A DNA stretch of 42,336 nucleotides from Pseudomonadota bacterium (GTDB lineage: Bacteria; Myxococcota_A; Bradymonadia; UBA4248), in the NCBI GenBank assembly GCA_017464085.1, contig JAFUEE010000179.1, forward strand, positions 1-42,336, given 5' to 3'. This document shows positions 393 through 23,754 of this stretch, piece after piece. Below the pieces are notes generated by a model. That model had not been told where the DNA came from, made no database searches, and was given only the letters and a program-made list of their open reading frames with translations. A program made the position numbers and the translations under genes. Numbering within the stretch: the first letter of the stretch is position 1; every line of letters begins with the position of its first letter.

Positions 393-3300
393 ATGTGCAA
401 AGAGCAATTCAATAGACGTTGGATGGCGTTGTGTGCGGCGTGTGCGGTGATTTCGCTGGGATGTGGTCCTCAGACGACTCAGGTGCCGTCAGATGAGGGA
501 TTGGGCGTATCAGGGCTGACTGATAGCGGCGACAACGCAGCTGGTATCGACAAATGTCGTCCCGAAGGCAAGATCATCACGTGCATAGAGGGGATTTGTG
601 ACCCGGCGACGGGCGATTGCGTGGAATGTCTGAGCGGAAGTGATTGCAGGACAGATGAAAAGCCTGTGTGTGCGGAGAAAAAATGCATGCCGTGCGATGC
701 ATCGCATGCCTGTGGTTCGGGCAGATGTGATGTCGTATCGGGCAAGTGCGTGGAGTGTATTTCGGATGGCGATTGCACGCTCCGGGAACGCGGCGTGTGC
801 TGGCAGGGGGTGTGTACGGCGTGCAGTCAGGAGAATTGCAAAGAGGCATGTCATGAGGTGACAGGCAGATGCGGTGCGTATGTGCCGATGCCTTGTCCTG
901 GCGGTAACTGTGGGGTGCCATCACCAATTGGGATTGGCACGATTGACCCGGGTACAATCGCGATCGGCAACAACATTCGTGTCGTGACGGTCGGTGTCCG
1001 CGATCTGAGGGCGCAGGAAAGAATGACCGAAATCGGGTCTTACAAAGTCGATGCGCGCGTCAGCGGCATGTATGCCGTCGTCTCGACAGAATTCTCGGTC
1101 TATAATCCCAACATGCGCGCGTTCGAAGGGGAGCTTGAGTTTCCGCTGCCCGATGATGCGGTGGTCTCTGGCTATGCCATCGATGTGAACGGCGTTTTGG
1201 TCGAAGGCCGCGTCGTCGAAAAGGAAAAAGCGCGCATCGCGTTTGAAAATGAAGTCAAGAAAGGCGTGGATCCCGGGCTGGTGGAACAGGTCAAGGGCAA
1301 TGCCTATCGCACGCGCATTTATCCGATTCCGGCCCAAGGAACTCGTCAAATCAGAGTGGTTTATACGACGCCGCTCACGATCGCGCCCAATGGCGATGCC
1401 GCGCTTGCGCTCCCGATGCCCAAGACGAAGCTCGCTAGACGCGATATATCGATTTCAGTCGCGAGCGGCATGCCTGCGCCCGCAGTCGGGGGCTTGGGCG
1501 ACAAACGATTTGAAGCTGCCGAAGCTGTCTGGAGAGTGGAGTCTCACGATACGGATATCACCCCGACAGAGAATGTTCTGGTCGCCATGCCGAACCTTCC
1601 CGATGTCGTGACGGCTGTCGAGAGGGGGAACGGGGAGCTGTTCTTCTCCGCGAGTGTCAAAGTGGCCGATGCGCCTGCTTCTCATGAGGTATTGCCAGCC
1701 AAATGGCGCATCATCTGGGATGCTTCGGGCAGCAGAAGCCCGGAAGATGTCGCCGCCGCGAGAAAGCTCATAGACAGCTTGCCAGATACGGCTGCTTATG
1801 AACTCCATGTGTTCCGCAATGATCTGGAACCGGTGCAGAACTTCGGTTCTCGTCTGGAACTCGCGGCTGCGCTCGATGCGCTTGCGTATGACGGCGGCAC
1901 GGATTTCGAACCGCTCAAGGCTGTTGCAGGGAGCAAATTCGATGGAATGACGCTTTTCTTTACCGATGGCATGGACACGATGACCAGCGCTTTGCCCGAG
2001 TTTGGCGCGAATTCGGTCGCACTGATTTCAGGGGCGGCGCGCGATGTCTCGTCGATGCGCCGGATATGCGGCGGCCGCACGATCAGCCTCGATATCGTGA
2101 ACGGCGCGGATGCCGTGCACCAGATCTTGGCACCTCAGCCCGTCATCTCGGGCATGAATGGCGCTGGACTCAGCGATATTCAGGGGATTGGGTTGCAGGC
2201 ATCGGGGAGGGTCACTGTCGTGGGCCGCATGAAAACGCCTGTTTCACAGGCGACAGTGCAATTATCGGATGGCCGGCAGATACCCGTTTCGTTCAACACA
2301 GCCGCCGTTCCTTCCGGGCGGACAATCGCCTCCGCCTGGGCTGCGCTCCGCATCGACGAGCTCTCTCCGCGCGCCGATGACAACCGCGAAGAACTGCTCG
2401 CGCTCGGCAGGCATTTCTCCATCGTCAGCCCGGTTTCCAGCATGATCGTCTTCGAGCGGCTCGATCAGTGGCTCCAGTACGATATCGAGCCGCCTGAATC
2501 TCTCGCGGACATGCATGCGCAATGGATGCGCCGGCATAAATCCGAGAGCGAAAAACAGTCCGAAAAGCTTCGCCTCGAACAGCAGTGGCTCAATAAACTC
2601 ACGGGCGAATGGAATGCGCGCGTCACGTGGTGGAACAATCCCGTTCCTAAATTTGTCAGGCACCAAAAACCAGATGCCCCCAGGTGGGCAGGAAGACGGC
2701 ACGGTGCTTCGGAAAGTGCGGTCATGGATAGTACCATGGTGCAGGAAGAAGCTGCAATGCCAATGCCTGCACCCGCTGCAGAGCCTGGTTATGCGCTCGG
2801 GGCAAGGGGAGCTGGTGGTGGCGGCGCTGGTTTAGGCGGTGCGCTGATGGCAAACAAAAAATCGGCCAGTGCCTCGGCCAGTGAATCACGAGAACCGCGC
2901 CACGCAGGGGCATCCATCACCGTCAAGGCCTGGGATCCGGACACGCCCTATCTCACGGCCATCAAAGACGCATATAAAATATATAAAACGCCGGAAGCTT
3001 TATATAGCGAATATATAAAACAGCGCGCAAATTACAGCGGCAGCCCGGCATTCTTCCTCGATTGCGCCGGGCTCTTCTTCAGCGAGAAGCAGAACAGGCT
3101 TGCGGTGCGCATTCTGTCGAACCTCTCGGAACTCAAGATCGACGATGTCGGCATGCTCCGCATCTATGCATGGCGTCTGCGCGAAGCAGGCGATTACGAC
3201 ACCGCGCTCATCATCCTGCGCAAGGTTGCCAAGCTCCGCGCCGATGAAGCCATCAGCTGGCGCGATCTGGCACTCACGCTCACGATGCGCGGCAAGCAGA

Positions 3301-3872
3301 ATCACAGCGCCGCCGACATTCAGGAAGCGCTCGAGCTTTTCCACAAAACCGCATTTACCGCCTGGCAGCGCAGCGACGCGATGTGGACCGCGCTCATCGC
3401 GCTCGAGGAATTCAATGAACTCGCGGCTTGGACGCGGCGCGAACAATGGCCCGGCGACGCCCCGCGCATCCCGGACATTGATGAAAAATTCGCTCAGAAC
3501 CTCGACACCGACCTGCGCATCATGATGACTTGGGATGCCGACAACACCGATATCGACATGCACGTCAAAGAACCCAGCGGCGAAGAGGTCTTTTATGCGC
3601 ATAATCGCTCGCGCACTGGCGGCCTTGTCAGCCATGACGTGACCACTGGCTATGGCCCGGAGGAATTTCTTCATAAAATTGCCCCGAAGGGCAGATATGA
3701 AGTCTTTACCAAATACTTCGCCTCACATCAGCAGTCGCTCGTCGGTCCGGCAACGATCACGCTCACGTTTTATACAAACTGGGGGCGGCCTGCGCAAAAG
3801 AGCGAATCCGTCAGCCTTCGCCTCGATAAACAGAAGGACAAGGTCATTGTCGGCTCAATCGATGTCAAATAA
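393..3872 (+). CDS. Large secreted/lipoprotein: N-terminal Cys-rich CxxC repeats, VIT (vault/inter-alpha-trypsin) domain, vWA domain (DxSxS motif 'WDASGSRS'), TPR-like helical middle, DUF2135/YfaP-like C-terminal domain
   Basis: The start is ATG 393, in frame with track ORF 297..3872 and preceded by AGGAGG at 381-386. Bases 297-392 of the track ORF lie inside a MITE copy. A signal peptide with a lipobox-like 'VISLGCGP' follows. VIT-like and vWA-like motifs are recognisable in the translation. The C-terminal 'DMHVKEPSGEEVFYAHNRSRTGG...TTGYGPEEF' looks like DUF2135. Confidence 0.75.
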   Translation: MCKEQFNRRWMALCAACAVISLGCGPQTTQVPSDEGLGVSGLTDSGDNAAGIDKCRPEGKIITCIEGICDPATGDCVECLSGSDCRTDEKPVCAEKKCMPCDASHACGSGRCDVVSGKCVECISDGDCTLRERGVCWQGVCTACSQENCKEACHEVTGRCGAYVPMPCPGGNCGVPSPIGIGTIDPGTIAIGNNIRVVTVGVRDLRAQERMTEIGSYKVDARVSGMYAVVSTEFSVYNPNMRAFEGELEFPLPDDAVVSGYAIDVNGVLVEGRVVEKEKARIAFENEVKKGVDPGLVEQVKGNAYRTRIYPIPAQGTRQIRVVYTTPLTIAPNGDAALALPMPKTKLARRDISISVASGMPAPAVGGLGDKRFEAAEAVWRVESHDTDITPTENVLVAMPNLPDVVTAVERGNGELFFSASVKVADAPASHEVLPAKWRIIWDASGSRSPEDVAAARKLIDSLPDTAAYELHVFRNDLEPVQNFGSRLELAAALDALAYDGGTDFEPLKAVAGSKFDGMTLFFTDGMDTMTSALPEFGANSVALISGAARDVSSMRRICGGRTISLDIVNGADAVHQILAPQPVISGMNGAGLSDIQGIGLQASGRVTVVGRMKTPVSQATVQLSDGRQIPVSFNTAAVPSGRTIASAWAALRIDELSPRADDNREELLALGRHFSIVSPVSSMIVFERLDQWLQYDIEPPESLADMHAQWMRRHKSESEKQSEKLRLEQQWLNKLTGEWNARVTWWNNPVPKFVRHQKPDAPRWAGRRHGASESAVMDSTMVQEEAAMPMPAPAAEPGYALGARGAGGGGAGLGGALMANKKSASASASESREPRHAGASITVKAWDPDTPYLTAIKDAYKIYKTPEALYSEYIKQRANYSGSPAFFLDCAGLFFSEKQNRLAVRILSNLSELKIDDVGMLRIYAWRLREAGDYDTALIILRKVAKLRADEAISWRDLALTLTMRGKQNHSAADIQEALELFHKTAFTAWQRSDAMWTALIALEEFNELAAWTRREQWPGDAPRIPDIDEKFAQNLDTDLRIMMTWDADNTDIDMHVKEPSGEEVFYAHNRSRTGGLVSHDVTTGYGPEEFLHKIAPKGRYEVFTKYFASHQQSLVGPATITLTFYTNWGRPAQKSESVSLRLDKQKDKVIVGSIDVK

Positions 3873-3902
3873 TATATATTTTATATTGACCTGTCGCTCC
3901 CC

Positions 3903-3936
3903 TATTTGCGGTTTATGAACTCATAAACCGCAAATA
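3903..3936. repeat. Perfect 34-bp palindrome (16-bp arms TATTTGCGGTTTATGA / TCATAAACCGCAAATA, 2-nt spacer), followed by two more GC-rich hairpins up to about 4020
   Basis: Seen directly in the sequence. It lies between the convergent VIT-vWA and NimA-like genes, has no flanking U-tract, and looks REP-like. A related 'CTATTTGC...GCAAATACG' palindrome sits at about 22583-22603. Confidence 0.6.
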
Positions 3937-4098
3937 CGGCTCGCAAGCGGCGCTATTGGCGACGATGTCGCCAATACGCGCCTTTTCGCCAGGCTATCGC
4001 GATGCGATACGCCTGGCGATGCTGTTCGCTGCGTGTCATAACGCGCAGTTTATTTGAACAATTTATAAATAATACGAATCGTAGGCATTTGATGTTTT

Positions 4099-4273
4099 AG
4101 GAAACTCTGAACAATTGCATAATCTTCAATCATGATATCGCGCAAATCCGCTCCCCTTGCCCCCTCGGGGAAAGGCCCGCTCGTCGCGTGCGCGAGGCTC
4201 GAAGCGAGCCGCTCCCCTTGCCCCATCGGGGAAAGGGGCCGGGGGGGAGGGGCCAATTAATCAGACTTTCCTT
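4099..4273. mobile_element. MITE family B, variant copy (about 175 bp): B-like terminal inverted repeats (AGGAAACTCTGAA ... TCAGACTTTCCT) enclosing a direct duplication of a 'CCGCTCCCCTTGCCCC(C/A)TCGGGGAAAGG' hairpin motif
   Basis: The ends match B copies 5350..5462 and 23642..23754 and the internal part differs. The element abuts and slightly overlaps the 3' end of the NimA-like gene. Confidence 0.45.
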
Positions 4274-4749
4274 TATGATTCGTTTACGAGTTTGCCAGTC
4301 ATGTGCTCTATGGTGAATTCGAGGCATTGAACTCTGTTGAATGCGGTTTCTAATTCTTTTTGAATATAAGCGGTATCATCTGTGAATTTGAAGGAAAGCT
4401 TTGTGCAGATTTCTTTTGAAAGCTGCATATCTTCGAGGAGATGAATCCGGCCAAATAGGACGACGCTCTTGATATTTAACGCCCATTCACCATCTTTTTG
4501 GAAGCCTTTGTCATAAACGCAAAAACAGGCTTTGTCACAGCGCTTGATGGCATCGATTTTATGTCCCTGTTTTGCCCCGTGAAAGTAGAGCTTATGCGTT
4601 GATGCATCATAATAATGGTTCAATGGAATGGCGTATGGGTAGCCGTCATCTCCGATGACAGAGAGAACGCCGCGAGGTTCGGTTTCAAGAATCTCAATAC
4701 ATTCTGCTTCCGTAATCTGCTGTTTGATTCGTCGCATTGCTCTAAACAT
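4273..4749 (-). CDS. Pyridoxamine 5'-phosphate oxidase-like FMN-binding split-barrel protein, NimA (5-nitroimidazole reductase)-like
   Basis: The 158-aa translation 'MFRAMRRIKQQITEAECIEIL...' is typical of the Nim/PNPOx-like family. Confidence 0.75.
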   Translation of the reverse strand: MFRAMRRIKQQITEAECIEILETEPRGVLSVIGDDGYPYAIPLNHYYDASTHKLYFHGAKQGHKIDAIKRCDKACFCVYDKGFQKDGEWALNIKSVVLFGRIHLLEDMQLSKEICTKLSFKFTDDTAYIQKELETAFNRVQCLEFTIEHMTGKLVNES

Positions 4750-4767
4750 AATCTGTTCCTTTAAGTT

Positions 4768-5088
4768 TTATTCCTCAGCAAACAATTTTAATCCCGTGAT
4801 GCCAATGATGATCAGAATCACGCAGATCATCTGAGGAAGAGAGGCTTTTTCATGAAAGAGAAAAATACCCAGCAGAGAGGTTCCGGCAATGCCGACGCCT
4901 GTCCAGATGGCGTATGCAGTGCCCAAGGGCATTTTTTTCATGGCAAGCGATAAAAACAAAGCACTGGCAAGATAGGCGATGACTGTAATGAGCGTCGGGA
5001 CGATTTTGGAAAACCCTTCCGAATACTTCATGCTGCATGCCCAGGTAATTTCAAACAGGCCGGCTAGCGCCAGCATCAACCACTTCAT
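4768..5088 (-). CDS. sugE: SMR-family small multidrug resistance protein, Gdx/SugE-type (guanidinium/quaternary ammonium exporter)
   Basis: The 106-aa product has 4 TM helices and the signature 'GLFEITWACSMKYSEGF...GTAYAIWTGVG', which closely resembles Gdx/SugE. Confidence 0.85.
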   Translation of the reverse strand: MKWLMLALAGLFEITWACSMKYSEGFSKIVPTLITVIAYLASALFLSLAMKKMPLGTAYAIWTGVGIAGTSLLGIFLFHEKASLPQMICVILIIIGITGLKLFAEE

Positions 5089-5134
5089 CGCTGATCCTCT
5101 CCAGTTCTCTTTATCTTCAAAGACCTAACGATAA

Positions 5135-5180
5135 AGAAAGGGTGTTGATCCTGCGACCCGGTGGCCGCAGGCACCATGTT
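5135..5180 (-). ncRNA. Structured 5' leader of sugE/gdx: nested GC-rich hairpins (GGUGC[CUGCG-GCCACCGGGU-CGCAG]GAUCAACACC) plus a second hairpin occluding the region just upstream of the SD; possible riboswitch-like element, class not assignable
   Basis: Found by reverse-complementing 5089..5200. Gdx genes are commonly controlled by guanidine riboswitches. I see partial resemblance (ACCGGGUC...AGGA) to guanidine-III but no pseudoknot and no match to the guanidine-I or -II consensus. Confidence 0.25.
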
Positions 5181-5272
5181 CTATTCGAATAGTATGTGCA
5201 GTCTTTTATATAATGTCAAACGATATTTCGAAATATATCGGCAGATAGATTGCTATTCCGCATGGTGTGGCA

Positions 5273-5570
5273 CACCCCCCCATCGCAGGCTTCGCTGGCG
5301 GCATTCGACAATGGCCAAGCCATGCACTTGAAATCAAAGCCATAGCTTTAGGAAGCTCTGAATAATTCGAAAACCTCATGGGGATGCGGGCGTCTCGCCC
5401 GCACAAAACTTATGCGTCTGAAATACTATTGTCCAAAAAACGGCAATTGTTCAGACCTTCCTTTATCATGCTCACCATTGCCTGTTGCCTGTTGCCTGTT
5501 GTTTGCACGCAAAATCACTCAATACTCCAGACCCCCCCCAATGGGGCTGAATAGTAACAATCTGAAGGTT
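5273..5570. repeat. Dispersed repeat family C copy (about 150 bp, starts 'CCCCCCCATCGCAGGCT', contains a (GCCTGTT)x3 heptamer tract) interrupted by a nested MITE-B insertion at 5350..5462
   Basis: It is homologous to 6452..6600, where the B insertion site is unoccupied (AGCTT|CATCATG there versus AGCTTT[B]TTATCATG here). Confidence 0.55.
5350..5462. mobile_element. MITE family B copy (113 bp; TIR AGGAAGCTCTGAA / TTCAGACCTTCCT; internal GCGGGCG-TCTC-GCCCGC hairpin)
   Basis: It is almost identical (1-2 mismatches) to 23642..23754 and has imperfect 13-bp terminal inverted repeats. An empty homologous site exists at about 6515, and no coding capacity is seen in the element. Confidence 0.7.
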
Positions 5571-5677
5571 TGAGTCGAGTGATACTTTTACAATTTCAAT
5601 GGTATTGAAAATTTGTTAGTGTCATCAGGCGGCAGAATTTTGCCGTATGCTAGATGAAACAAAAAAGGTGGTGTTGT

Positions 5678-6334
5678 ATGAATTATCAGGAAATCAAACA
5701 CAACGAGGAAATCAATACTTATATCAGGCAGGCGGACCTGTCGCTGTCTGCGCTTGGATATACAGAACACAGCTTTGCGCATGTGACGCTGGTCGCTGAA
5801 AAGGCTGGCTATATCCTTGAGACGCTTGGCTATCCGGCGCGCACGGTCGAGCTTGCCAAAATTGCAGGATACCTGCACGATATCGGCAATCTCGTCAACC
5901 GAGTGGATCACAGCCAGTCAGGCGGAATCATGGCTTTCAGGCTTCTGGATCATTTAAAATTTCCGCCAGAGGAGATCGGCATGATCGTGTCTGCAATTGG
6001 CAATCATGACGAAGGCACCGGGGTGCCAGTCAGCGCGCTCGCGGCCGCTCTGATTCTCTCCGATAAGAGCGATGTCCGACGCAACCGTGTGCGCAATCAG
6101 GATGTCGCGTCCTTTGATATCCATGATCGCGTGAATTATTCTGTGACCATGTCTGAATTGAAAATCAATGACGCGAGGACAATTATCACATTAAAGCTTT
6201 CGATTGATACGCATTATGGCTCTGTCATGGATTATTTTGAAATCTTTTTGCAGCGCATGATACTTTGCCGCAAAGCTGCGGAAAAACTGGGACTTCAGTT
6301 TAAATTGGTCATCAATGATCAGCAGCTCATTTGA
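5678..6334 (+). CDS. HD-domain metal-dependent phosphohydrolase (family member unassigned)
   Basis: The start is ATG 5678 after AAGGTGG. The motifs 'H..HV......AGYLHDIGN' fit the H...HD signature. Confidence 0.7.
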   Translation: MNYQEIKHNEEINTYIRQADLSLSALGYTEHSFAHVTLVAEKAGYILETLGYPARTVELAKIAGYLHDIGNLVNRVDHSQSGGIMAFRLLDHLKFPPEEIGMIVSAIGNHDEGTGVPVSALAAALILSDKSDVRRNRVRNQDVASFDIHDRVNYSVTMSELKINDARTIITLKLSIDTHYGSVMDYFEIFLQRMILCRKAAEKLGLQFKLVINDQQLI

Positions 6335-6451
6335 GTTTCTGTTCAAGGAAAAAGCTGAACAATAGGCATCAGCGCGCGAAGCGGCAAGAAACGCAGGTCT
6401 GAGAAAAAACGAAATTGAATGTCTGAACGTTACTATTCAGCCAGGAGTGAC

Positions 6452-6600
6452 ATCCCCCCCATCGCAGGCTCCGTTTGCGGCCATTCAATCCATGCTGCTG
6501 AATGCGAAGCCAGAAGCTTCATCATGATCACTGCTGCCTGTTGCCTGTTCGTAAAAGCCTTAATGGGGCGGCTGAATAAATAATGCCTGAACATTTCATT
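6452..6600. repeat. Dispersed repeat family C copy (uninterrupted)
   Basis: It is collinear with 5273..5570 minus the B element and lies upstream of the SH3b lipoprotein gene. Confidence 0.5.
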
Positions 6601-6688
6601 TGATTGTATTTCTTGATAATCCCCGGGGATGGGGGTAGAAATGGGATGGGGTATTTTTACGGGACGAGCAGGGCTTCAGGAGGTCTTG

Positions 6689-7909
6689 ATGAAACGATTT
6701 CGAATATTTGAAAGCGCCGTGCTAGTGACGGCAATTTTCATGGGATTTTCTCTGAATTCGTGCACTGACGAGGAAGACTGGATGCTTCTAGACGATGAGT
6801 TTGGAGAGGTTCAGTCCGCGCTTTCGAGTGCCACGATTACCAAAGGTGCTGTCTCTGTGCGAACAGGTCCTGGGGTTTGGTATGATCGCATCGGGGGGTT
6901 GCGCTATGGGAAAACTGTGAGCGTTGTCAAAGAACAGGCTGGATGGCTCAAGATCAAGTATGGGGATTCGGAAGGCTGGATTTATCGTCCGGATACCGAT
7001 CTTGCATCCTCAAGCGCTGCCGCAAGCTGCTCCGCAGATGTTGCCAATTTCATCCGCGACAATTATCCCGATGGCTACAATATTATATTTGCTTACAACG
7101 GCTCTGATCAGGCTGCGGAATTTCATAGCCAGGCAAAGCAGTTTTCATCTGAATATCATACACTTAATGTATCCAGTGGCGAGCTCAAAAAAGATATATA
7201 TAGAAAAGTTAAGAACTATTCCGAGTTCAAGAATGGCATTCTTGAGACAGGCCGTGCCGTTGTCAAATGTCTGGAAGATAACCCGCGCGCCGGTTATGAT
7301 GACAGCAAGTGCTCGCAGATCAAGAACCTGACCGTGATGACGCACGGCTTCACAACCGGTCTGAATTTTGGCGGCGGCTATTTCAATAACACCGACATTC
7401 CGGATTTTGGCTCGACGGTTTATGGATATCTTAACAACAAGTCGCTTCGCGTGCAGCTTTATGCATGCAGCGCGGCGCGAAATAAAGATACTAAAGAAAA
7501 CTGGTATGAGCGCTATACGGGCGATATCATCAAGGAACAGGATCCGTTCAAGGGCGGCAAAGGCTCGTTTGCGCAGCTTTTGTCTGAAGAAATGGGGCCG
7601 GATGCCACCGTCTTTGGGCACACGACTGCCGGTCATCTTTCCGGAAACTACGCCGCTCGCTGCTATGGCAAGATGGCCAACGGCGCGGTTCACGGCAAAC
7701 ACATGTTTGATGTCTATTTCCCACAGTCGTTCGTTGCTGAACAGGCAAAACGTATCGGCAAAAGCGAAGATGCGACCCGCACCTCGATGTATTCATACTA
7801 TCGATCGAATGGAGCATATCCGGGCAACAACAGCGGGCGAGATACTTTTATGGATCCAGAAGGCAAAGGCAAGAAAATGCGCGATGCCTGGCTGAGCAAA
7901 AATCCATAA
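6689..7909 (+). CDS. Lipoprotein with SH3b (bacterial SH3) domain and an uncharacterized C-terminal domain (about 280 aa; contains 'LYACSAAR' and 'GHTTAGH' motifs, possible hydrolase)
   Basis: The start is ATG 6689 after CAGGAGG. The signal peptide is 'MKRFRIFESAVLVTAIFMGFSLNSC' with a lipobox. The SH3b-like segment is 'GAVSVRTGPGVWYDRIGGLRYGKTVSVVKEQAGWLKIKYGDSEGWIY'. Confidence 0.7.
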   Translation: MKRFRIFESAVLVTAIFMGFSLNSCTDEEDWMLLDDEFGEVQSALSSATITKGAVSVRTGPGVWYDRIGGLRYGKTVSVVKEQAGWLKIKYGDSEGWIYRPDTDLASSSAAASCSADVANFIRDNYPDGYNIIFAYNGSDQAAEFHSQAKQFSSEYHTLNVSSGELKKDIYRKVKNYSEFKNGILETGRAVVKCLEDNPRAGYDDSKCSQIKNLTVMTHGFTTGLNFGGGYFNNTDIPDFGSTVYGYLNNKSLRVQLYACSAARNKDTKENWYERYTGDIIKEQDPFKGGKGSFAQLLSEEMGPDATVFGHTTAGHLSGNYAARCYGKMANGAVHGKHMFDVYFPQSFVAEQAKRIGKSEDATRTSMYSYYRSNGAYPGNNSGRDTFMDPEGKGKKMRDAWLSKNP

Positions 7910-7967
7910 TCCTGATGGCTCGAATTGCTGAAAGCTTGGAAATTAATCTGACTCCGGGAGGTTCACT

Positions 7968-9470
7968 ATGAATAAAATCAGTTGGCTCATGAGTTTGGTT
8001 GCCGTTTCAGTGTGCTGCATGTATGGCTGCGACAGTGGCGACACAATCGTCTTCGGGCAAGCCAATGATGTCGGGGATACGACTGCCGGCGATAAGGACG
8101 GCGTTGACAAGACCGACGGCTGTGAGAAAGGCCAGAAATATGTAGATGGCAAGTGCTATGACATAAGCAATTACTGCGAGATGGATTCAGATTGCAGGGA
8201 TGGGTATATCTGCAAATCTAATGTCTGCACGAAAAAAACATCAAGCAGCGCAATTGCTTCCTGCTCCGATCATAAGAAAAATGGGGATGAGGCAGATGTT
8301 GACTGCGGCGGTTCATGCGGCGGATGTGCTGTAAATATGCACTGCAATGCGAACGCTGACTGCATGAGTAACCGTTGTGACGGCGGCATCTGCAAGGCTG
8401 TCGAGCAGTGCGCGGGTGGCAGCTGTGATGTCGAAGTCGCTCCATGTGCGGACGGCAGCTGTGATGTCGAAGTCGCTCCATGTGCGGACGGCAGCTGTGA
8501 TGTCGAAGTCGATCTATGCAAAGACGGCAAGCGTTCCGGCAATGAATCCGATGTCGACTGCGGCGGGTCTTGCGCGCTCTGCGTGGATGGCAAGTCCTGC
8601 AATTCTGGTGCGGATTGTGAGAGCGGTATGTGCGATGGAGTTTGTGTCTCCTGCTCGGATGGCATTCACAATGGCAATGAGGCCGATGTCGATTGCGGCG
8701 GTGCATGCGGAAAATGTGCGGACGGCGCAAAGTGCAATTCAAAAGAGGATTGTGCCAGCGGTTTCTGTGACGGCAACATGTGTGTTTCGTGCAACGACGG
8801 CATCCGCAATGGCAATGAAGCCGATGTGGACTGTGGTGGCCGATGCGGTGCCAGCTGCGCGGCGGATAAGCGTTGCAATACAGATAATGACTGCGAAACA
8901 TATAACTGCGTCGAGCAGATCTGCCGGCCCATTGATTGCCCGGATAAGGCCGAGGTCGGGGATATTATTATTAATGAAGTGTTTTCCAATCCCGACACGA
9001 ATGCAATAATGCAGCATTCCAACAATAAGCAGATGAAATATATCGAGCTCTATAATAAGTCCGACAAGACATTGCAACTCTATAACCTCTCTTTGACATA
9101 CGCCGGAAATGAAGTGCGTGCAAAGGGCTGCATCCCTGCCGGGAGCTATCTTGTCATTTATCCTGCGGGACAAAACCTCACAGCCCTCGACATCGACGCC
9201 AAAACTCTGGCTTCCGACAACATTGATGCGGCGATCAGCGCCATGTCCGGTGCGGTCAGGCTTGTGAAACGCGCAGACGGCGCGGTCATACATTCAGCGA
9301 CGGTGCCCGAGACCGAAAAAGGGACTTCCGCAGGCCGCGCAGCGGCAGAGGGCAGCAGCACAAATGACGAAGCCATGGTTCCGCATTCGTCGGTCAAGAC
9401 CATCGAATCTGGCGTTAAAAACCTCTATACACCGGGCCTGCCCAATAATGTCGGTTTCCCGATGGGGTAA
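7968..9470 (+). CDS. Cys-rich secreted lipoprotein with 5 'GNEADVDCGGxCGxC' modules and a C-terminal lamin-tail domain (LTD)
   Basis: The signal and lipobox are 'MNKISWLMSLVAVSVCCMYGC'. LTD-like segment: 'IIINEVFSNPD...KYIELYNKSDKTLQLYNLSL'. Confidence 0.8.
   Translation: MNKISWLMSLVAVSVCCMYGCDSGDTIVFGQANDVGDTTAGDKDGVDKTDGCEKGQKYVDGKCYDISNYCEMDSDCRDGYICKSNVCTKKTSSSAIASCSDHKKNGDEADVDCGGSCGGCAVNMHCNANADCMSNRCDGGICKAVEQCAGGSCDVEVAPCADGSCDVEVAPCADGSCDVEVDLCKDGKRSGNESDVDCGGSCALCVDGKSCNSGADCESGMCDGVCVSCSDGIHNGNEADVDCGGACGKCADGAKCNSKEDCASGFCDGNMCVSCNDGIRNGNEADVDCGGRCGASCAADKRCNTDNDCETYNCVEQICRPIDCPDKAEVGDIIINEVFSNPDTNAIMQHSNNKQMKYIELYNKSDKTLQLYNLSLTYAGNEVRAKGCIPAGSYLVIYPAGQNLTALDIDAKTLASDNIDAAISAMSGAVRLVKRADGAVIHSATVPETEKGTSAGRAAAEGSSTNDEAMVPHSSVKTIESGVKNLYTPGLPNNVGFPMG
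8418..8513 (+). repeat. In-frame 36-bp tandem repeat x about 2.7 (GSCDVEVAPCAD units) inside the LTD lipoprotein gene
   Basis: Two perfect copies and one partial copy of 'GGCAGCTGTGATGTCGAAGTCGCTCCATGTGCGGAC' are present at the nucleotide level. Confidence 0.85.
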
Positions 9471-9503
9471 TGGATACGCGGGGATATGCCGCGTTTGGGC
9501 ATG

Positions 9504-9647
9504 CGCCTATGCCTGACGGCATACGGCGCGCAAGTTCCACGGAACGTCTCTACATTTTGCTCGCCTATGCCTGACAGCATACGGCGCGCAAGTTCCACGG
9601 AACGTCTCTACATTTTGCTCGCCTATGCCTGACGGCATACGGCGCGC
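9504..9647. repeat. REP-like family D: 58-bp unit in tandem x 2.5 (each unit = GCGCC-TATGCC-tgac-GGCATA-CGGCGC hairpin + GTTCCacGGAAC palindrome)
   Basis: The array is a direct tandem with no unique spacers, so it is not CRISPR. Dispersed copies occur at about 30571-30627 and about 39235-39300. Confidence 0.8.
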
Positions 9648-9797
9648 TAGCTATGCTCGGATGCCAGTTGCTGAATGCCGGAAAAGCAGTGCTTCGTGAT
9701 GTTTGGGCTTCACATTCGGCGAATGGGGGATGTTTGCGTGTGTGGTGGTGTGGTAAAGTGGGTGATATGTGTGATATTTGTAATACATTGGATATGC

Positions 9798-11288: not shown

Positions 11289-11412
11289 TGCGGATAGTTG
11301 CCTTCCGGGATGTCGTTGAGCAGTTAATCAGATATCTGGTTTGAAAAAGCGCGAACTAAACGGTATAACGGCAGAAGATGGTGTTTTCGCCAACGACTTT
11401 AAGGAGATTAGT

Positions 11413-13893
11413 ATGAAAAAAGCCCGTATAGCGATTTTAGTGTGTATGCTTTCAGGGTGTTTTGCCGTGTGCGGGTGCGGAAGCAGTGACGTGATCATCG
11501 GCAATACCGGCGGAAGCGGCGGAAGCGGCGGAGGCAATCAGGATAAGCCTTGCGTCGGGGATGCGTGTGATACGGAGGATGCGTGTACGGCGGAGAGCTG
11601 TCCGGATGGAGAGTGCGTGGATGGTCAGTGTGTACCGGATTGCACGGGCGATTCCTGTGGCGAGCCGGAGACATGCACGTTTGAGACTTGTCCGGATGGG
11701 GATTGTGTAGACGGTGAATGCGTGCCGCGTGAGGAAACGTGCAATGCCGAGACATGCCCGAATGGAAAATGCATCGCTGGGGAGTGTGTCATACCGAAAT
11801 GCGATGCGCCCGATGCGGACAATGACGGCATATCCGATGAGAATGAGGGGCGTGCGGAGAATCGCGACAGCGATGGCGATACGGTGCCTGACTATCTGGA
11901 CGATGACAGTGACGGGGACACGATTCCTGATCGCATCGAGGCTGGTAATGAAGGCTGCGCCAACACAAAGCCGGTTGATACGGACAGCGATATGATTCCG
12001 GATTATCTGGATGATGACAGCGATGATAACGGCATTCCTGACAGCCTGGAAGCCGGCGCGAATCCTCAGAGCCCGATAGACACGGATGGGGATACGGTGC
12101 CGGATTATATCGATGATGACAATGACGGGGATGGCATTCCCGACATTCTCGAGATTTATGGCGAAGTCGTGAGCGGCGCGAATCTTCCGGAAGGCAAGAT
12201 CTCTGCGGATTGCGATGGGGACGGCCAGGCGGATGATGCTGGGACGGCAGAGAATCCGCGTGATTGCGATGCCGATGGCGTGCCTGACTATATGACGCCT
12301 GACAGTGACGGCGATACGCTTCGTGACGATTATGAAGGCAGCAGGCGCGTCGGGCCTTATCTTGCGAGATATTCGACAGACAGCGATTCCAATGGGATAT
12401 CCGACGCGGATGAATGCCGTGGGCAGATGTCTGATGGCTATCAGATCAGCTGTGCGGATACGGACAATGATACGGTTCCGGACTTCCTCGACCTGGATAA
12501 TGACGGCGATTCTCTGTCGGATGTGTATGAAATCGGCAAGGGATATGACCCGAATAATTCTGATTCGGACGGTGACGGCGCGGACGACCTGATCGAAATC
12601 GGGGCAGGGACAGACCCGAAGGATCCGAATGTGAATCCGCAGAGCGAGGGAAACTTCGTGTTCAAAGTGCCGTATAAGAAGAAAGCCGAGCCAGAGAAAC
12701 AGTCGCTGAGCTTCGCGACATCGGTCCAGACGGTGGATATTTACTTTGCCGTCGATACGAGCGGCTCGATGAGCGGGGAGATAAATACACTTAAGAGTGA
12801 GCTGCCTGCGATGCTTGAGGAGATGCGCTGCAAAGACCTTGGCCGTAATTGTGCGGACAATAATGACTGCGAAGGGCTGAATGGAGGGAAGGCGATCTGT
12901 AGCGAGTCTGGACGTTGTATTGTGGATCCGTCAGAAGGTGATGGTTGTTTTGCGGATATGTGGACGGGATTTGGCGTCTGGGGCAATGTGAACCGGTTTG
13001 AAAACTGGCAGTCTCTTGATGCGACGCCGTCAAACACGACGAAAGAACTGGGTAATGTAAAGTTAAATGATCAGGGAATGTCTGAAAATAGCATTCAGGT
13101 CGGGGCGTGTGTTTCAGAAGGCACGAAATACTGCAAGAATACATCGTCGATTAAATGTTATCAAGGAAGTGGTCGCGTTGGTTGTGTCGGTTTCCGCCAA
13201 GATGCGATTAAAATCTTGATTCAGGCAGGTGATGAGGCGAATTACGATTCTTCTGATTGGAGAGTGACAGATGCCAAGAAGACTGGGGATTCGCTGCGCA
13301 AGAATAATATCCGATATATCGGTCTGTACGGCTGTAGCGGGTCAGGTAGTAAGAAAAAATGTGAGGCACGAGATAAGGGGCAGGCGCAAGTGGCGTGCTG
13401 GGCAGGTTCGTGTGCAGCAGGCGGGAATTGTGCGGCATCTTGCGACAGCATCAGCTCAAGCGAGATGAGCGGGCTTTATCTGGCGGAGATTGCGGACGCG
13501 ACCATTCGCAGTGAGACGATCGCAAATGTGCGCAAGCTCGCGAAAGGCATGAACCTTCACATCACTTCGGGCGTGGAGGATGTGGACAAGGGGGCTGCGC
13601 AGCTCGTGAAGGAGCTGAAGGTGAACATCACGGATTCGGAAGTGCAGGGCCGTACGTGCACGAAAGTGAGCGGGATTTCCGGGGATACGTTCCAGTCGAT
13701 CGAGAAGCTTGCGCCGGGCACGAGCGTGTGTTTCGACGTGATTCCTGTGGACTATCAGGAGCTTTTCCCGCCGACGAACGAGCCTCAGGTGATCAAAGCG
13801 AGAATCAAGGTCATGGGCGACGGCTCGACGCTGAATTCGGGAATCGCTTATTTCCTTGTTCCGCCTGAGATTCAGGAAGAGCATATCAACTGA
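11413..13893 (+). CDS. TSP3-repeat / vWA-domain lipoprotein, paralog 1 (Cys-rich CPDGxC repeats; about 12 thrombospondin type-3 Asp-rich Ca-binding repeats; vWA metal-binding motif 'DTSGSM'; Cys-containing C-terminal domain)
   Basis: The start is ATG 11413 after AAGGAG. The lipoprotein signal is 'MKKARIAILVCMLSGCFAVCGC'. It is 60-70% identical to the next three genes, judged by eye. Confidence 0.85.
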   Translation: MKKARIAILVCMLSGCFAVCGCGSSDVIIGNTGGSGGSGGGNQDKPCVGDACDTEDACTAESCPDGECVDGQCVPDCTGDSCGEPETCTFETCPDGDCVDGECVPREETCNAETCPNGKCIAGECVIPKCDAPDADNDGISDENEGRAENRDSDGDTVPDYLDDDSDGDTIPDRIEAGNEGCANTKPVDTDSDMIPDYLDDDSDDNGIPDSLEAGANPQSPIDTDGDTVPDYIDDDNDGDGIPDILEIYGEVVSGANLPEGKISADCDGDGQADDAGTAENPRDCDADGVPDYMTPDSDGDTLRDDYEGSRRVGPYLARYSTDSDSNGISDADECRGQMSDGYQISCADTDNDTVPDFLDLDNDGDSLSDVYEIGKGYDPNNSDSDGDGADDLIEIGAGTDPKDPNVNPQSEGNFVFKVPYKKKAEPEKQSLSFATSVQTVDIYFAVDTSGSMSGEINTLKSELPAMLEEMRCKDLGRNCADNNDCEGLNGGKAICSESGRCIVDPSEGDGCFADMWTGFGVWGNVNRFENWQSLDATPSNTTKELGNVKLNDQGMSENSIQVGACVSEGTKYCKNTSSIKCYQGSGRVGCVGFRQDAIKILIQAGDEANYDSSDWRVTDAKKTGDSLRKNNIRYIGLYGCSGSGSKKKCEARDKGQAQVACWAGSCAAGGNCAASCDSISSSEMSGLYLAEIADATIRSETIANVRKLAKGMNLHITSGVEDVDKGAAQLVKELKVNITDSEVQGRTCTKVSGISGDTFQSIEKLAPGTSVCFDVIPVDYQELFPPTNEPQVIKARIKVMGDGSTLNSGIAYFLVPPEIQEEHIN

Positions 13894-13925
13894 TTGGCAG
13901 CTGGCCTGCTTTATCGTGGGGTGAA

Positions 13926-13958
13926 GCGAGCCGTCCGCAAGGGCGGCTCGCTTTTTTA
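13926..13958 (+). terminator. Rho-independent terminator after paralog 1
   Basis: GCGAGCCGTCC-gcaa-GGGCGGCTCGC followed by TTTTTT. Confidence 0.85.
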
Positions 13959-14063
13959 TTGGGGCAGAAAATTGCCGGGCGTATCGCGCAGCGATAGCAC
14001 GGCAAAGGCGGCCGTATGCGCCTTTGCGCATAGGCTGCCGCAGACAGGATGTCCTGATGAGGC

Positions 14064-14106
14064 AAAAAAAAATCGAAATCGGAAAAAACATCTGCTAAGT
14101 AATAGG
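14064..14106 (+). promoter_or_regulatory. Conserved A-rich upstream module (A9 tract ...ATCGAAATCGGAAAAAACATCTGCTAAGTAATAG) about 150 bp upstream of paralog 2; homologous copy 16941..16988 upstream of paralog 3
   Basis: The two intergenic regions share this module and neighbouring REP-like palindromes, so the duplication appears to have included the regulatory DNA. The A9/A8 homopolymer could slip. Confidence 0.4.
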
Positions 14107-14213
14107 CGTTTGCGATTTTGGACTGAATGTCCGGCTGGTTTTTAGACGTAGAAGCCCGTTCAACGTGTTGATGCGTTTTGTTGTGATGCCTATCCGTGGG
14201 CAGGAGATTTGAT

Positions 14214-16739
14214 ATGAAGAAAGTGCATCTCATGATGCTTGTCTGGTTGATTGGCAGCGCGTGTGCTGCGACCGGTTGCGATGAAAAGACGAGTGAAGAG
14301 GCGCAGAAGCAGGCAGAATGCGTGGGGGATGCTTGCGAGCCGTCGTGCACGCCGGAAAATTGTCCGGACGGCACATGTGAGGATGGCAAATGCGTGAAGC
14401 CGTGTTCAGGAAGTGCGTGTGGGACGGTGGAGACGTGCAGCGCCGAGACATGCCCGGACGGAGACTGTGTGGATGGGGCGTGTGTGCCTCGTGCTGAGTC
14501 GTGCAGCGCAGCGACGTGTCCAAATGGCAAGTGCATCCAGGGCGAATGCGTGATCCCGAAATGCGATGCGCCGGACGAGGATAATGACGGCATTTCGGAT
14601 GAGGATGAAGGGCGCGCGGAAAACCGCGACAGCGATGGCGATACAGTGCCGGATTATCTGGATGAGGACAGCGACGGGGACACGATCCCGGACCGCGTGG
14701 AAGCGGCGAATGACGGATGTTCGCGCAACAAGCCGGTAGATACGGACGGCGATGCGATTCCGGATTATCTGGATGAGGACAGCGACGATAACGGGATACC
14801 GGACAGCGTGGAAGCAGGGGCGGATCCGAAGAATCCGGTGGATACGGATGGCGACGGGGTGCCCGATTACCGCGACGATGACAATGATGGGGATGGATTT
14901 TCTGATATCCTCGAGATTTATGGTGAAGTGGCTGCCGGTGTGGAAGTGCCGGTGGGAAAGATTTCTTCGGACTGCAATGGCGATGGCGTGGCGGACGATA
15001 TGGGGACGCTCGATAAGCCGAGGGATTGCGACGGCGACGGGGTGCCCGATTACATGTCACCGGACAGTGACGGCGACTCTTTGCCCGATGCTTATGAAGG
15101 AAGCAAACGTGCTGGGCAGTGGCTCGCAAGATATTCGAAAGACAGCGACCTGAACGGCATTCCGGACAAGGAAGAATGCGGCGGGACGAAGGACGAGGCC
15201 GGGCATCAGACGGATTGCGTGGATACGGACGGGGATACGCTGCCAGATTTTCTGGATCATGACAACGACGGCGATTCGCTTTCGGACGTGTATGAGATCA
15301 GCAAAGGGTACGATCCCGGCAAAGCTGACAGCGACGGGGACGGCGCGGACGATCTGATCGAGGTCGGCGCTGGGACTGATCCGATGGATCCGAATGTGAA
15401 TCCGCAGAGCGAGGGCAACTTCGTGTTCAAGGTGCCGTACAAAAAGAAAGCAGAGCCTGAGAAGCAGTCGCTGAGCTTTGCGACTTCGGTGCAGACGGTC
15501 GATATCTATTTTGCCGTGGATACGAGCTCTTCGATGGGGGATGAAATCAAGACATTGAAGACTGAGCTCCCTGCGATGCTGGATATGATGCGCTGTCGTG
15601 ACCTTGAGCGTGACTGCGTCGCCAATTCGGACTGCAAGGATCTGAATGACGGCAAGGCGATCTGCAGTGTCGCTGGGCGATGCATCGTGGATCCCAATTC
15701 GGTTGTCGAGAAGAATCCTGAGACGAAACAGGATGAGGTCGTCGGGTGTTTTGTGGACATGTGGACGGGCTTCGGCGTGTGGGGCAACCTGAACACATTC
15801 AGCAACTGGCAGTCTCTGGATGCCGATCCGAGGAAGACGACGAAGGCGCTCGATATCGTCAATATGGATTCTCAAGGCGATAATGAAAACAGCGTCCAGG
15901 TGGGGGCCTGTGTGTCTGAAGGGCTCACCTATTGCTGCAGGAATATGGACAATGTGTGCACTCAGGAAGAGGCGCAGGTATGCCAGAATGAGGACAAGAT
16001 CAAGTGTTATGACGGCGATGACCGTATCGGGTGCGTGGGGTATCGAAAGGATGCGATCAAGATTCTGATTCAGGCTGGGGATGAGCGCAACTTTGAATCG
16101 GGCACTGTCGAGCAGAAGTGCTGGCGATACAGCAATGCTGAGCGGACGGGCACATCGCTTCGGAAGAATAATATCCGATATATCGGTCTGTATGGCACGC
16201 CTGAGGCGCGCGACAAGGGGCTGAGCCAGGTGGCTTGCTGGGCCGGCTCATGCGCGGCGGGCGGCAATTGCGCGCTTTCGTGCAATGTCATGTCAGACAG
16301 CGAGAAAGCGGGGCTGTATCTTGCGGCGATTCATAACGAAGATATCAAGGAAAAGACGGTATCTATGGTGCGCAAGCTCGCGAAAGGCATGAACCTGCAC
16401 ATCACATCTGGTGTCGAGGATATGGATGCGGATGCGTCCAAGCTCGTGAAAGGGCTTCAGCTGAATGTGACGGACGAGAGCGTTCAGGGGCGCAACTGCA
16501 CGAAGATAGACGCTTCGCTCGTATCCTCGGATGCTTTCCCGGGGATTGAAAAGCTTGCGCCGGGCACGACAGTCTGCTTTGATGTGCTGCCCGTCGATTA
16601 TCAGGAAATTTTCCCTCCGAAGGAGGAACCTCAGGTAAAGAAGGCCAAGATCAATATATTTGGTGACGGCTCGATGCTGAATTCGGGGATTGCGTATTTC
16701 CTCATTCCGCCTGAGATACAGGAGGATCAGGTCAACTGA
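14214..16739 (+). CDS. TSP3-repeat / vWA-domain lipoprotein, paralog 2
   Basis: The start is ATG 14214 after CAGGAG. The signal is 'MKKVHLMMLVWLIGSACAATGC', and it has the vWA metal-binding motif 'DTSSSM'. Confidence 0.85.
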   Translation: MKKVHLMMLVWLIGSACAATGCDEKTSEEAQKQAECVGDACEPSCTPENCPDGTCEDGKCVKPCSGSACGTVETCSAETCPDGDCVDGACVPRAESCSAATCPNGKCIQGECVIPKCDAPDEDNDGISDEDEGRAENRDSDGDTVPDYLDEDSDGDTIPDRVEAANDGCSRNKPVDTDGDAIPDYLDEDSDDNGIPDSVEAGADPKNPVDTDGDGVPDYRDDDNDGDGFSDILEIYGEVAAGVEVPVGKISSDCNGDGVADDMGTLDKPRDCDGDGVPDYMSPDSDGDSLPDAYEGSKRAGQWLARYSKDSDLNGIPDKEECGGTKDEAGHQTDCVDTDGDTLPDFLDHDNDGDSLSDVYEISKGYDPGKADSDGDGADDLIEVGAGTDPMDPNVNPQSEGNFVFKVPYKKKAEPEKQSLSFATSVQTVDIYFAVDTSSSMGDEIKTLKTELPAMLDMMRCRDLERDCVANSDCKDLNDGKAICSVAGRCIVDPNSVVEKNPETKQDEVVGCFVDMWTGFGVWGNLNTFSNWQSLDADPRKTTKALDIVNMDSQGDNENSVQVGACVSEGLTYCCRNMDNVCTQEEAQVCQNEDKIKCYDGDDRIGCVGYRKDAIKILIQAGDERNFESGTVEQKCWRYSNAERTGTSLRKNNIRYIGLYGTPEARDKGLSQVACWAGSCAAGGNCALSCNVMSDSEKAGLYLAAIHNEDIKEKTVSMVRKLAKGMNLHITSGVEDMDADASKLVKGLQLNVTDESVQGRNCTKIDASLVSSDAFPGIEKLAPGTTVCFDVLPVDYQEIFPPKEEPQVKKAKINIFGDGSMLNSGIAYFLIPPEIQEDQVN

Positions 16740-16768
16740 TCGGCATGAGGCGCATGCCGATGGATGCG

Positions 16769-16796
16769 AGGCCGCCCTTCGGGGCGGCTTTTTTTG
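16769..16796 (+). terminator. Rho-independent terminator after paralog 2 (GGCCGCCC-ttcg-GGGCGGC + T7), preceded by a CGGCATG/CATGCCG hairpin
   Basis: Seen directly in the sequence. Confidence 0.9.
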
Positions 16797-16940
16797 ATTA
16801 CTTTTTTGGTGGCATGAGACGGCGCTTTTGAGCGTGCTGCACTGCTTGAGCGAGAAAATAGTGGCAGCCGTGCGTATCGGCGCAGCCGATAGCGCGGCTG
16901 GGCGGCAGTATGCGCATGGCGCATAGGCCGCCCGACAATT

Positions 16941-16988
16941 AAAAAGCAAAAAAAATCGAAAAGGGTAAAAACATCTGCTAGATATAGT
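16941..16988 (+). promoter_or_regulatory. Second copy of the conserved A-rich upstream module, about 130 bp upstream of paralog 3
   Basis: See 14064..14106. Confidence 0.4.
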
Positions 16989-17070
16989 CGGATATGCTAG
17001 AGGCTTGTCTGTTGTCAGCACGGCATATTTTTGACCAGTTTGAAGAAAGTCCTTTTTCAGGAGAACGGAT

Positions 17071-19530: not shown

Positions 19531-19547
19531 TCTGAGTGAATAAGTTT

Positions 19548-19577
19548 ACGGGCGCATTTGAATGCGCCCGTTTTCTG
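19548..19577 (+). terminator. Rho-independent terminator after paralog 3 (ACGGGCGCA-tttgaa-TGCGCCCGT + TTTCT)
   Basis: The 9-bp stem is perfect. Coordinates are +/-1. Confidence 0.8.
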
Positions 19578-19639
19578 TATCTGATTGAGTGGCTGCTTGG
19601 ATTGATGCGCGCAGTGCTTGGGGCTGATATGGAATCAAT

Positions 19640-19800
19640 CATAATGTATGGCTGTTCAGAAATTGCATGAAGATTGCAATTTAGAATATTATATATTATT
19701 TGTGGAATTTGTATTTATATAATTATGTATAAATATGGTGATAATATATATAAATTTTCAGTCATTTGAATGGCAATGATTTTTCGGCAGCAGTGGGAAG
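19640..19800. promoter_or_regulatory. Markedly AT-rich island (about 160 bp, visually <25% GC versus a genome around 57%) with the inverted repeat AAATTGCA-N7-TGCAATTT; upstream of paralog 4
   Basis: Compositional contrast is seen directly. Multiple TATAAT-like hexamers are present. Confidence 0.5.
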
Positions 19801-20030
19801 ACACTGATGGGATTCCGGGAGACAATAGCCAGTATGTGCGAGAGGCACATCTGCGAGGCGATTTGTACGGATGGGGCACAGGGCGCATGGTGAAGCTGAG
19901 CGAGATGCCGACGCATGCTCTGTGTTGCCCACAAAAAAATGCGCAGTGATTGCAAATATCTGTTAAGCTATGAAAGTGTTGTGTGTTTGAACAAGCCCTT
20001 TGTGGTGATGTTGTGTTGGAGTGAGTGATC

Positions 20031-23464: not shown

Positions 23465-23636
23465 AAGGCTGTGTTCAACGTCCGTGGATATGAAATACAA
23501 GGCAGCAGGCAATAGAATGTAGGCAGTAGTGCGCATGATAAAGGCAAAAGCTTTTATATGGAGAGGCTATTGATGCTTGATTGCCGATAATACATGGCAT
23601 TTGGGAGCCATATCCACGCCTGTTGAACAGAGCCTT
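23465..23636. mobile_element. MITE family A copy (about 170 bp; TIR TAAGGCTGTGTTCAAC ... GTTGAACAGAGCCTTA)
   Basis: It is homologous to 210..371 in inverted orientation and to 25728..25922. It sits between the NfeD-like and flotillin genes. Confidence 0.7.
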
Positions 23637-23641
23637 ACTTA

Positions 23642-23754
23642 AGGAAGCTCTGAATAATTCGAAAACCTCCTGGGGATGCGGGCGTCTCGCCCGCACAAAA
23701 CTTATGCGTCTGAAATACTATTGTCCAAAAAACGGCAATTGTTCAGACCTTCCT
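23642..23754. mobile_element. MITE family B copy (113 bp), immediately adjacent to the MITE-A copy
   Basis: It is nearly identical to 5350..5462. Confidence 0.7.

Follow-up and report, generated by a model that had tools for sequence, protein, structure and literature searches.

IS5-type miniature elements in two sequence families around a Nim-like/Gdx-like gene pair of an uncultured Bradymonadia bacterium

The contig JAFUEE010000179.1 of assembly GCA_017464085.1, whose 42,336 nucleotides we refer to throughout as the window, comes from an uncultured bacterium placed in the Bradymonadia. Near one end of the window lies a chromosomal stretch in which a VIT gene is followed, in order, by a repeat termed Bv, a gene for a Nim-like protein, a gene for a Gdx-like exporter, a repeat (C1) that is interrupted by another repeat (B1), a gene for an HD-domain phosphohydrolase, a second C repeat (C2) and an SH3 gene, an order that is found in two independent assemblies (Table 1). 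A second copy of B (B2) and three members of a further repeat family (A1 to A3) lie elsewhere in the window, and the neighbourhood, with genes for AlaRS, RF3 and glutamate dehydrogenase, is that of a chromosome. A first-pass annotation of this DNA had read B as a recently moved miniature inverted-repeat transposable element, or MITE, and had seen in the pair formed by Bv and B1 something like a composite transposon around two drug-related genes. Our analysis bears out the former claim and speaks against the latter: B and Bv are, with good confidence, IS5-group MITEs that inserted separately, and their bracketing of the gene pair is a by-product of these insertions and not the footprint of a composite transposon.

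Table 1. Positions of the repeats, insertion sites and genes discussed in the text (coordinates of the window)
Feature	Position	Strand	Description
Bv	4100-4271	.	172-bp IS5-type MITE; TTTA duplications at 4096-4099 and 4272-4275
B1	5351-5461	.	111-bp IS5-type MITE inside C1; TTTA duplications at 5347-5350 and 5462-5465
B2	23643-23753	.	second B copy; TTAA duplications at 23639-23642 and 23754-23757
C1	5253-5553 (about)	+	older A/C-family repeat, 186 bp without the insert, split by B1 (from alignments)
C2	6433-6578 (about)	+	second C copy, uninterrupted at the position equivalent to B1
A2	23466-23632	-	family-A repeat, one of three
A1 and A3	209-372 and 25730-25912		other family-A repeats
Site at 5586	5586-5589	.	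empty in the window (GATAC TTTT ACAATTTC); in contig L009 directly preceded by a Bv-type right end
Nim-like gene	4273-4749	-	PNPOx-family split-barrel protein, 158 aa, 42% GC
Exporter gene	4768-5088	-	SMR-family Gdx/SugE-like exporter, 106 aa
HD gene	5678-6334	+	HD-domain phosphohydrolase, 218 aa, between C1 and C2
Promoter match	5191-5219	-	sigma-70-like match (TTGACA, 17-nt spacer, CATACT) upstream of the exporter gene

Ends, target duplications and nesting of the elements

The cores of B1 and B2, taken from GGAAG to CTTCC, differ at one position and agree at the remaining 110 of 111, and a repeat search pairs the slightly longer segments 5346-5469 and 23638-23761 at 97% identity (family D16). 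B and Bv both carry terminal inverted repeats (TIRs) of 17-19 bp with the sequence GGAAGSTCTGAAYAATT; in Bv, the left TIR reads GGAAACTCTGAACAATTG and the right TIR, when reverse-complemented, reads GGAAAGTCTGATTAATTG. When the window was searched with the consensus end (AGGAAGCTCTGAACAATTG), allowing up to three mismatches, five sites were returned where 0.01 would be expected by chance, and these correspond to both ends of B1, both ends of B2 and the left end of Bv. With the cores delimited from GGAA to TTCC, a perfect 4-bp direct repeat flanks each of the three elements, and because TTTA is not its own reverse complement, these flanking repeats are target duplications and not extensions of the inverted repeats. 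In the case of Bv, the Nim-like gene's stop codon, TAA, overlaps with the right-hand TTTA. The open reading frames (ORFs) that can be drawn within B and Bv are short (42-68 aa), overlapping and mechanical, with none credible as coding sequence, and no transposase turned up when 14 large ORFs of the window were scanned against Pfam. Taken together, the TIRs, the perfect duplications and the near-identity of the two copies support the earlier description of B as a recently moved MITE, the near-identity of B1 and B2 pointing to recent spread. Bv had been described as a variant of B, which is correct as regards its ends, where 16 of 19 positions are shared with B on each side, and as regards the duplication in its interior, a 28-bp direct repeat (4148-75 and 4209-36, 96% identical) set among GC-rich hairpins. 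However, the interiors of Bv and B are unrelated, and the likeness between the two is confined to their ends. The positions first assigned to these repeats were right to within a few bases, except that both C copies extend further than had been drawn.

B1 is nested in C1, as the first-pass annotation had recognized. After removal of B1 and of one TTTA, C1 becomes colinear with C2 from end to end across the insertion point, the sequence at the join being AGCTTTATCATGC in C1 as compared to AGCTTCATCATGA in C2. The claim that C2 preserves the uninterrupted site was likewise upheld, and it extends to family A, as alignment identifies family C as a diverged relative of that family. At the position equivalent to B1, A2 and A3 contain a single TTTATCATGC and A1 contains TTGTCATGC; the tetranucleotide (TTTA, TTCA or TTGT) thus occurs once in C2 and in each of A1 to A3, which provides four paralogous copies of the uninterrupted state. 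The nesting of B1 within another repeat in turn indicates that it arrived by insertion. B2 sits 6 bp from the end of A2, and the finding that both B copies lie in, or no more than 6 bp from, a member of the A/C group suggests a preference for these A/T-rich repeats. Families A and C themselves make up a second, older MITE-like family with inverted ends of roughly 20 bp (CTCTGTTCAACAAGCGTGGA). The C repeats have short CTATTCMGC inverted ends, and C appears to be a degraded version of family A.

The termini of B and Bv resemble those of the IS5 group of insertion sequences (IS). The right end of B (GGAAGGTCTGAACAAT) matches one end of the annotated IS5A of E. coli MG1655 (ends GGAAGGTGCGAATAAG and GGAAGGTGCGAACAAG) at 13 of 16 positions when compared with GGAAGGTGCGAACAAG, and it also agrees with the first 12 nucleotides of the left TIR of MITEPsy1 (GGAAGGTCTGAAAAAGCC). 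A scan of one genome per species with the TIR AGGAARSTCTGAAYAATTS returned at least 111 loci. Among the matches listed, a Stenotrophomonas contig (L019, positions 2886-4066) holds a 1181-bp element that has the same ends and a TTAA duplication, and its 322-aa transposase scores 347.8 bits against the NCBIfam IS5-family model NF033581 (transpos_IS5_4, cut-off of 140) and also matches PF01609 and PF05598. The scan further yielded at least about 30 short elements (98-210 bp) that have these ends too and that are flanked by a matching duplication of 4 bp (TTAA, CTAA, TTAG, TTTA, TTAT or TCAA); their hosts, among the matches listed, include Gammaproteobacteria, Nitrospira, Binatia, Nitrosomonas and others. 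None of the fetched elements resembles B or Bv in its interior, the likeness being limited to the TIRs, and JGI metagenome scans with the left end of B and the right end of Bv produced zero matches. Judged by their termini and target duplications, B and Bv are IS5-group MITEs of the MITEPsy1 type, and each adds a new sequence family to a class that is already known and very widespread. MITEs of this class also occur in clusters, with two or three elements within 0.4-1.3 kb at L020, L049, L050, L065, L107 and L122, in Binatia, Nitrosomonas and several metagenome-assembled genomes (MAGs) of Gammaproteobacteria. Such loci indicate that clustering is common and not specific to the locus described here.

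Both elements are predicted to be structured. Folded as DNA, Bv reaches -38.5 kcal/mol (z = -2.3 as compared to shuffled controls), and B1 forms an internal hairpin (z = -3.6). Since the repeats are also found in intergenic positions only, they could be viewed as host-encoded structured elements, such as REP-like sequences, terminators or determinants of RNA stability, that do not derive from transposons. This explanation is very hard to reconcile with the perfect 4-bp direct repeats that accompany every copy, with TIRs that also occur in a transposase-bearing IS, and with the nesting of one copy inside another repeat. In addition, neither B nor Bv has an Rfam match (searched over 3900-6700), and no terminator-like site was scored within the repeats. 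We consider it a very remote alternative to their being MITEs.

Assembly support, related strains and the history of the insertions

The arrangement of the locus is supported by contigs from other assemblies. An ENA metagenome contig (L001) is identical to the window apart from two mismatches and the copy number of a tandem repeat near 8454-8482, and an NCBI MAG contig (L002) is 99% identical. These represent slightly different strains, and both span 1938-9120 in the same order with no large indels and with B1 100% identical. Short-read Logan contigs break at window positions 4128, 4216 and 5342/5343, which would be in keeping with an artefact in which a metagenome assembler joined unrelated pieces at repeats. 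The two spanning contigs contradict such a scenario, as do Logan contigs that cross the individual junctions, with L130 passing from the VIT gene into Bv, and L003 and L132 from Bv through the Nim-like and exporter genes into the left half of C1; we regard a misjoined locus as scarcely credible. L003 and L132, which come from different samples, both stop at 5342/5343, only 7-8 nt before B1, and the 30-mer from the left half of C1 that precedes this point must therefore have a second continuation elsewhere in those metagenomes. More distant relatives, in which the VIT protein is 73-86% identical (L127, L128 and a contig of GCA_016648615.1), carry other genes downstream of it. The locus is therefore variable, and these relatives give no informative empty allele; B-type TIRs were not found in L127 or L128, the two relative contigs with readable DNA. 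It had been reasoned beforehand that conservation of the gene pair at this position in MITE-free relatives would speak against its mobilization; no such conservation was observed, the relatives having different genes at this place.

Related strains provide evidence on the copy number and mobility of Bv. For two samples, the Logan assemblies (L130 and L131) stop at window position 4128, 29 nt into Bv, as is expected when a de Bruijn assembler meets a repeat. In sample SRR27361822, which contains a strain 90-96% identical to the window, contigs L132 and L009 both begin with the 30-mer GTTAGGGGCCAATTAATCAGACTTTCCTTT, which ends in the Bv terminus. Beyond this 30-mer, L132 follows the window through the Nim-like and exporter genes to the left half of C1 with 96.5% identity, and ends at window position 5342. 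L009 proceeds with TTTTACAATTTC, which in the window starts at position 5586, a point 90 bp upstream of the HD gene, and it retains C2 at about 870-1020 of its own coordinates. The simplest reading of the L009 junction is that the strain in SRR27361822 has a second Bv-type copy at the site that is empty in the window. This Bv end, together with the assembly breaks inside Bv, suggests that the lineage probably has several copies of Bv and that the element moves in it. We also considered L009 as a clean empty site devoid of the Nim-like and exporter genes, and rejected this because SRR27361822 also holds L132, which has both of them.

Several points weigh against the view that B and Bv are mobile IS5-group MITEs that inserted independently. 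The L009 junction would arise equally from a rearrangement adjacent to Bv or from the loss of 1.3 kb (4272-5585) via the 4-nt microhomology CTTT, and the TTTT that flanks it is not a typical IS5-group target. A second Bv at 5586 would imply a left junction in which ...GATACTTTT is joined to GGAAAC, unlike a deletion of 4272-5585; L009 is unbroken past its junction, evidence against a wild-type left flank co-existing in SRR27361822. The empty state of B is seen in paralogous repeats of about 75% identity, and not in true alleles. Direct observation is limited to two copies of B within 42 kb and a single copy of Bv, and the ends and the duplications form the entire basis of the family assignment. 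Finally, the source organism was not among the matches listed in the TIR genome scan, which provided no autonomous IS5-family element of its own.

Separate insertion of B and Bv remains the account that we favour. Starting from what was observed directly (the TIRs, the duplications, the nesting, the match to IS5-type TIRs and the presence of the Bv end in more than one context), we infer the transposase involved, its action in trans and the recency of the movement as follows. B and Bv would keep only the TIRs that an IS5-family DDE transposase recognizes. Because no transposase was found among the ORFs scanned in the window, the enzyme would have to be encoded elsewhere in the genome and act in trans, moving the elements into 4-bp A/T-rich targets (TTTA or TTAA) that are duplicated on insertion. 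Bv would have inserted at the TTTA overlapping the Nim-like stop codon, B1 at a TTTA within C1, an older repeat unrelated to it, in the spacer that separates the divergent exporter and HD genes, and B2 beside another member of the older A/C family. The bracketing of the gene pair would then reflect MITEs piling up in the A/T-rich spacers of a variable, lower-GC stretch of the chromosome.

The gene pair and its bracketing by Bv and B1

The two bracketed genes had been described as encoding a NimA-like split-barrel protein and a Gdx/SugE exporter. Pfam places the 158-aa protein in the PNPOx split-barrel family (PF12900, 64 bits; PF01243, 34 bits), but its scores are about half of the NCBIfam Nim cut-offs (135.6 bits versus 270 for NimIJ, and 128.9 versus 260 for NimABCDEF), and its matches to solved structures are weak (E = 2e-7 to 7e-7). 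The protein is best regarded as a Nim-like member of the PNPOx family, and its gene not as a recognized nim gene. Its nearest homologues are 67-75% identical, and those that are named derive from Lachnospiraceae, Treponema and Eubacterium MAGs. The assignment of the exporter stood: it matches PF00893 with 109 bits and scores 113 bits against the NCBIfam SugE model, just under the cut-off of 126. Its best solved structure is Gdx-Clo (6wk5), with E = 7e-27 as compared to 2.6e-15 for EmrE, and by these matches the protein resembles the guanidinium exporter Gdx-Clo more closely than EmrE or Qac. A guanidine riboswitch is common, but not universal, upstream of Gdx/SugE genes; Rfam searches of 3900-6700 returned neither this nor any other family at the gathering threshold or at E <= 10. 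The drug-resistance framing of the pair is thus weaker than first stated. The promoter-like site upstream of the exporter gene is predicted from a consensus match only and lies outside every repeat. A promoter or terminator borne by a MITE was considered and rejected, as the best promoter-like site of the exporter is outside the repeats and no terminator-like site is inside them.

The Nim-like and exporter genes have GC contents of 42% and 47%, respectively, as compared to about 58% for the VIT, AlaRS and RF3 genes, and this lower GC, together with the relatives of the Nim-like protein, makes a foreign origin of the pair plausible. At the nucleotide level, the nearest homologues are 73-78% similar, and the similarity does not extend beyond the ORFs. 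We considered a recent horizontal transfer of the pair and rejected it, since neither a donor segment nor a boundary can be delimited from such similarity.

In the composite-transposon reading, Bv and B1 form the ends of a unit of roughly 1.36 kb (4100-5461) that brought the two genes, Nim-like and Gdx-like, to their present locus, or that could carry them onward. A number of features are compatible with it. The left end of Bv and the right end of B1 (GGAAGGTCTGAACAATTG) are inverted, outward-facing and match at 16 of 18 positions, the outermost flanks of the unit are both TTTA, which is the criterion used for TIME-COMP units (PMC13367494), the cargo is lower in GC than its neighbours, and the relatives lack the gene pair downstream of the VIT gene. 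MITE pairs are, moreover, known to move cargo, as in IMU and TIME-COMP units. What decides against the reading is the position of C1, whose left half (5253-5346) lies inside the unit and whose right half (5466-5553) lies outside it. Together, the halves rebuild one complete repeat with a single TTTA, so B1 must have inserted in place, and the segment was not delivered bounded by B1. The inner flanks of the unit are also TTTA, each MITE having its own duplication, and with all four flanks alike the matching outer pair is uninformative. The unit is also known from only one context: the exact Nim-like protein is recorded in four contigs that share one and the same context, its only cluster-mate at 90% identity or more is that of L132, which is syntenic, and its nearest homologue (75% identical) occurs in an unrelated context that contains neither sugE nor a MITE. 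Moreover, the DNA similarity of the pair to its nearest homologues ends at the ORF boundaries. The composite reading is therefore contradicted for the past insertion, and onward mobility is at most a possibility in principle; as a whole we judge it very improbable. A narrower version, in which a pair of IS5-type MITEs (Bv with B1, or Bv with the second Bv of the related strain) constitutes a unit open to mobilization in trans by a resident IS5-family transposase, seems to us decidedly improbable too. If true, it would represent a non-Tn3 "MITE-COMP" carrying a Nim-like reductase and a Gdx exporter in an uncultured bacterium.

The surrounding genes and spacers have features of their own. The HD protein shares 85-92% amino-acid identity with proteins of Ruminococcus, Lachnospiraceae and other Firmicutes, whereas nucleotide identity is only 77-78%, which reflects either unusually strong cross-phylum conservation or an old transfer. 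A 36-bp tandem repeat in an LTD-domain gene (8400-8529) differs in copy number between the window and L001. Further along, a 254-bp spacer (9477-9730) contains a 58-bp tandem repeat (9504-9619) that has a third copy at 30600-30657. In L009, this spacer is replaced by about 4.5 kb (3870-8364) with a Fic-domain gene, an ORF of 886 aa and two small ORFs, a segment that is a strain-specific island at a repeat. Positions 11341-22502 hold four tandem paralogous genes for proteins of 820-850 aa that contain Cys-rich modules and many DxDxDG repeats. These repeats are thrombospondin type 3-like, and the first of the four paralogs has no Pfam match.

Comparison with known MITEs and MITE-bounded units

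The locus offers a clean example, with its own internal controls, of how IS5-type MITEs behave in an uncultured lineage: one insertion is nested, empty sites survive in paralogous repeats, and strains probably differ in where the element lies. The TIR and its 4-bp duplication mark a very widespread and largely unannotated class of MITEs that crosses phyla, and recognizing it is of use in annotating MAGs and in explaining why short-read assemblies break at these elements. The locus reveals no new mechanism and offers no evidence that genes of the resistance type are being moved. The first-pass annotation had thought a MITE-bracketed arrangement unusual, but MITE-bounded units are documented, among them IMU and TIME-COMP units, which are bounded by Tn3-derived MITEs, and the MITE-flanked class 1 integrons of Acinetobacter (PMC13367494, PMC10969869). 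Even if mobile, the arrangement described here would be a variant of such units. The one angle that would give the composite reading some interest is that the bounding MITEs are not of the Tn3 type, as the authors of a 2026 survey were aware of no unit in Enterobacteriaceae with MITEs other than Tn3-type at its ends (PMC13367494). The locus resembles the documented units in that two MITEs with outward-facing TIRs bracket genes of the drug or xenobiotic type. However, those units have Tn3-type MITEs, carry duplications at their outermost ends only, and either occur in several contexts or have been moved experimentally, whereas the MITEs described here are IS5-type and non-identical, have their own duplications, include one (B1) that inserted in place, and bracket a pair known from one context.

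The closest counterpart of B and Bv is MITEPsy1 of Pseudomonas syringae pv. phaseolicola, a 100-nt element that was trapped while transposing in vivo, that duplicates 4 nt at CTAG or YTAA, and that is thought to derive from ISPsy2 of the IS5 family (Bardaji et al. 2011; PMC3189936). The likeness extends to a length of about 100 nt, TIRs of roughly 18 nt that begin with GGAAGGTCTGAA, a 4-nt duplication, the lack of an ORF, and an occurrence both within other mobile elements and in intergenic DNA. MITEPsy1 differs at TIR positions 13-18 (AAAGCC versus CAATTG) and in its interior, which is unrelated to that of B or Bv. Its mobility has been demonstrated experimentally, whereas the mobility of B and Bv, which target TTTA or TTAA in an uncultured MAG that is labelled Proteobacteria, is inferred. 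The termini of E. coli IS5 (GGAAGGTGCGAAYAAG) are similarly close to those of B (GGAAGSTCTGAAYAAT), and IS5-group elements, like B and Bv, generate 4-bp duplications at A/T-rich, YTAR-like targets. The IS of this group measure about 1.2 kb and encode a transposase, whereas B and Bv, at 111 and 172 bp, do not.

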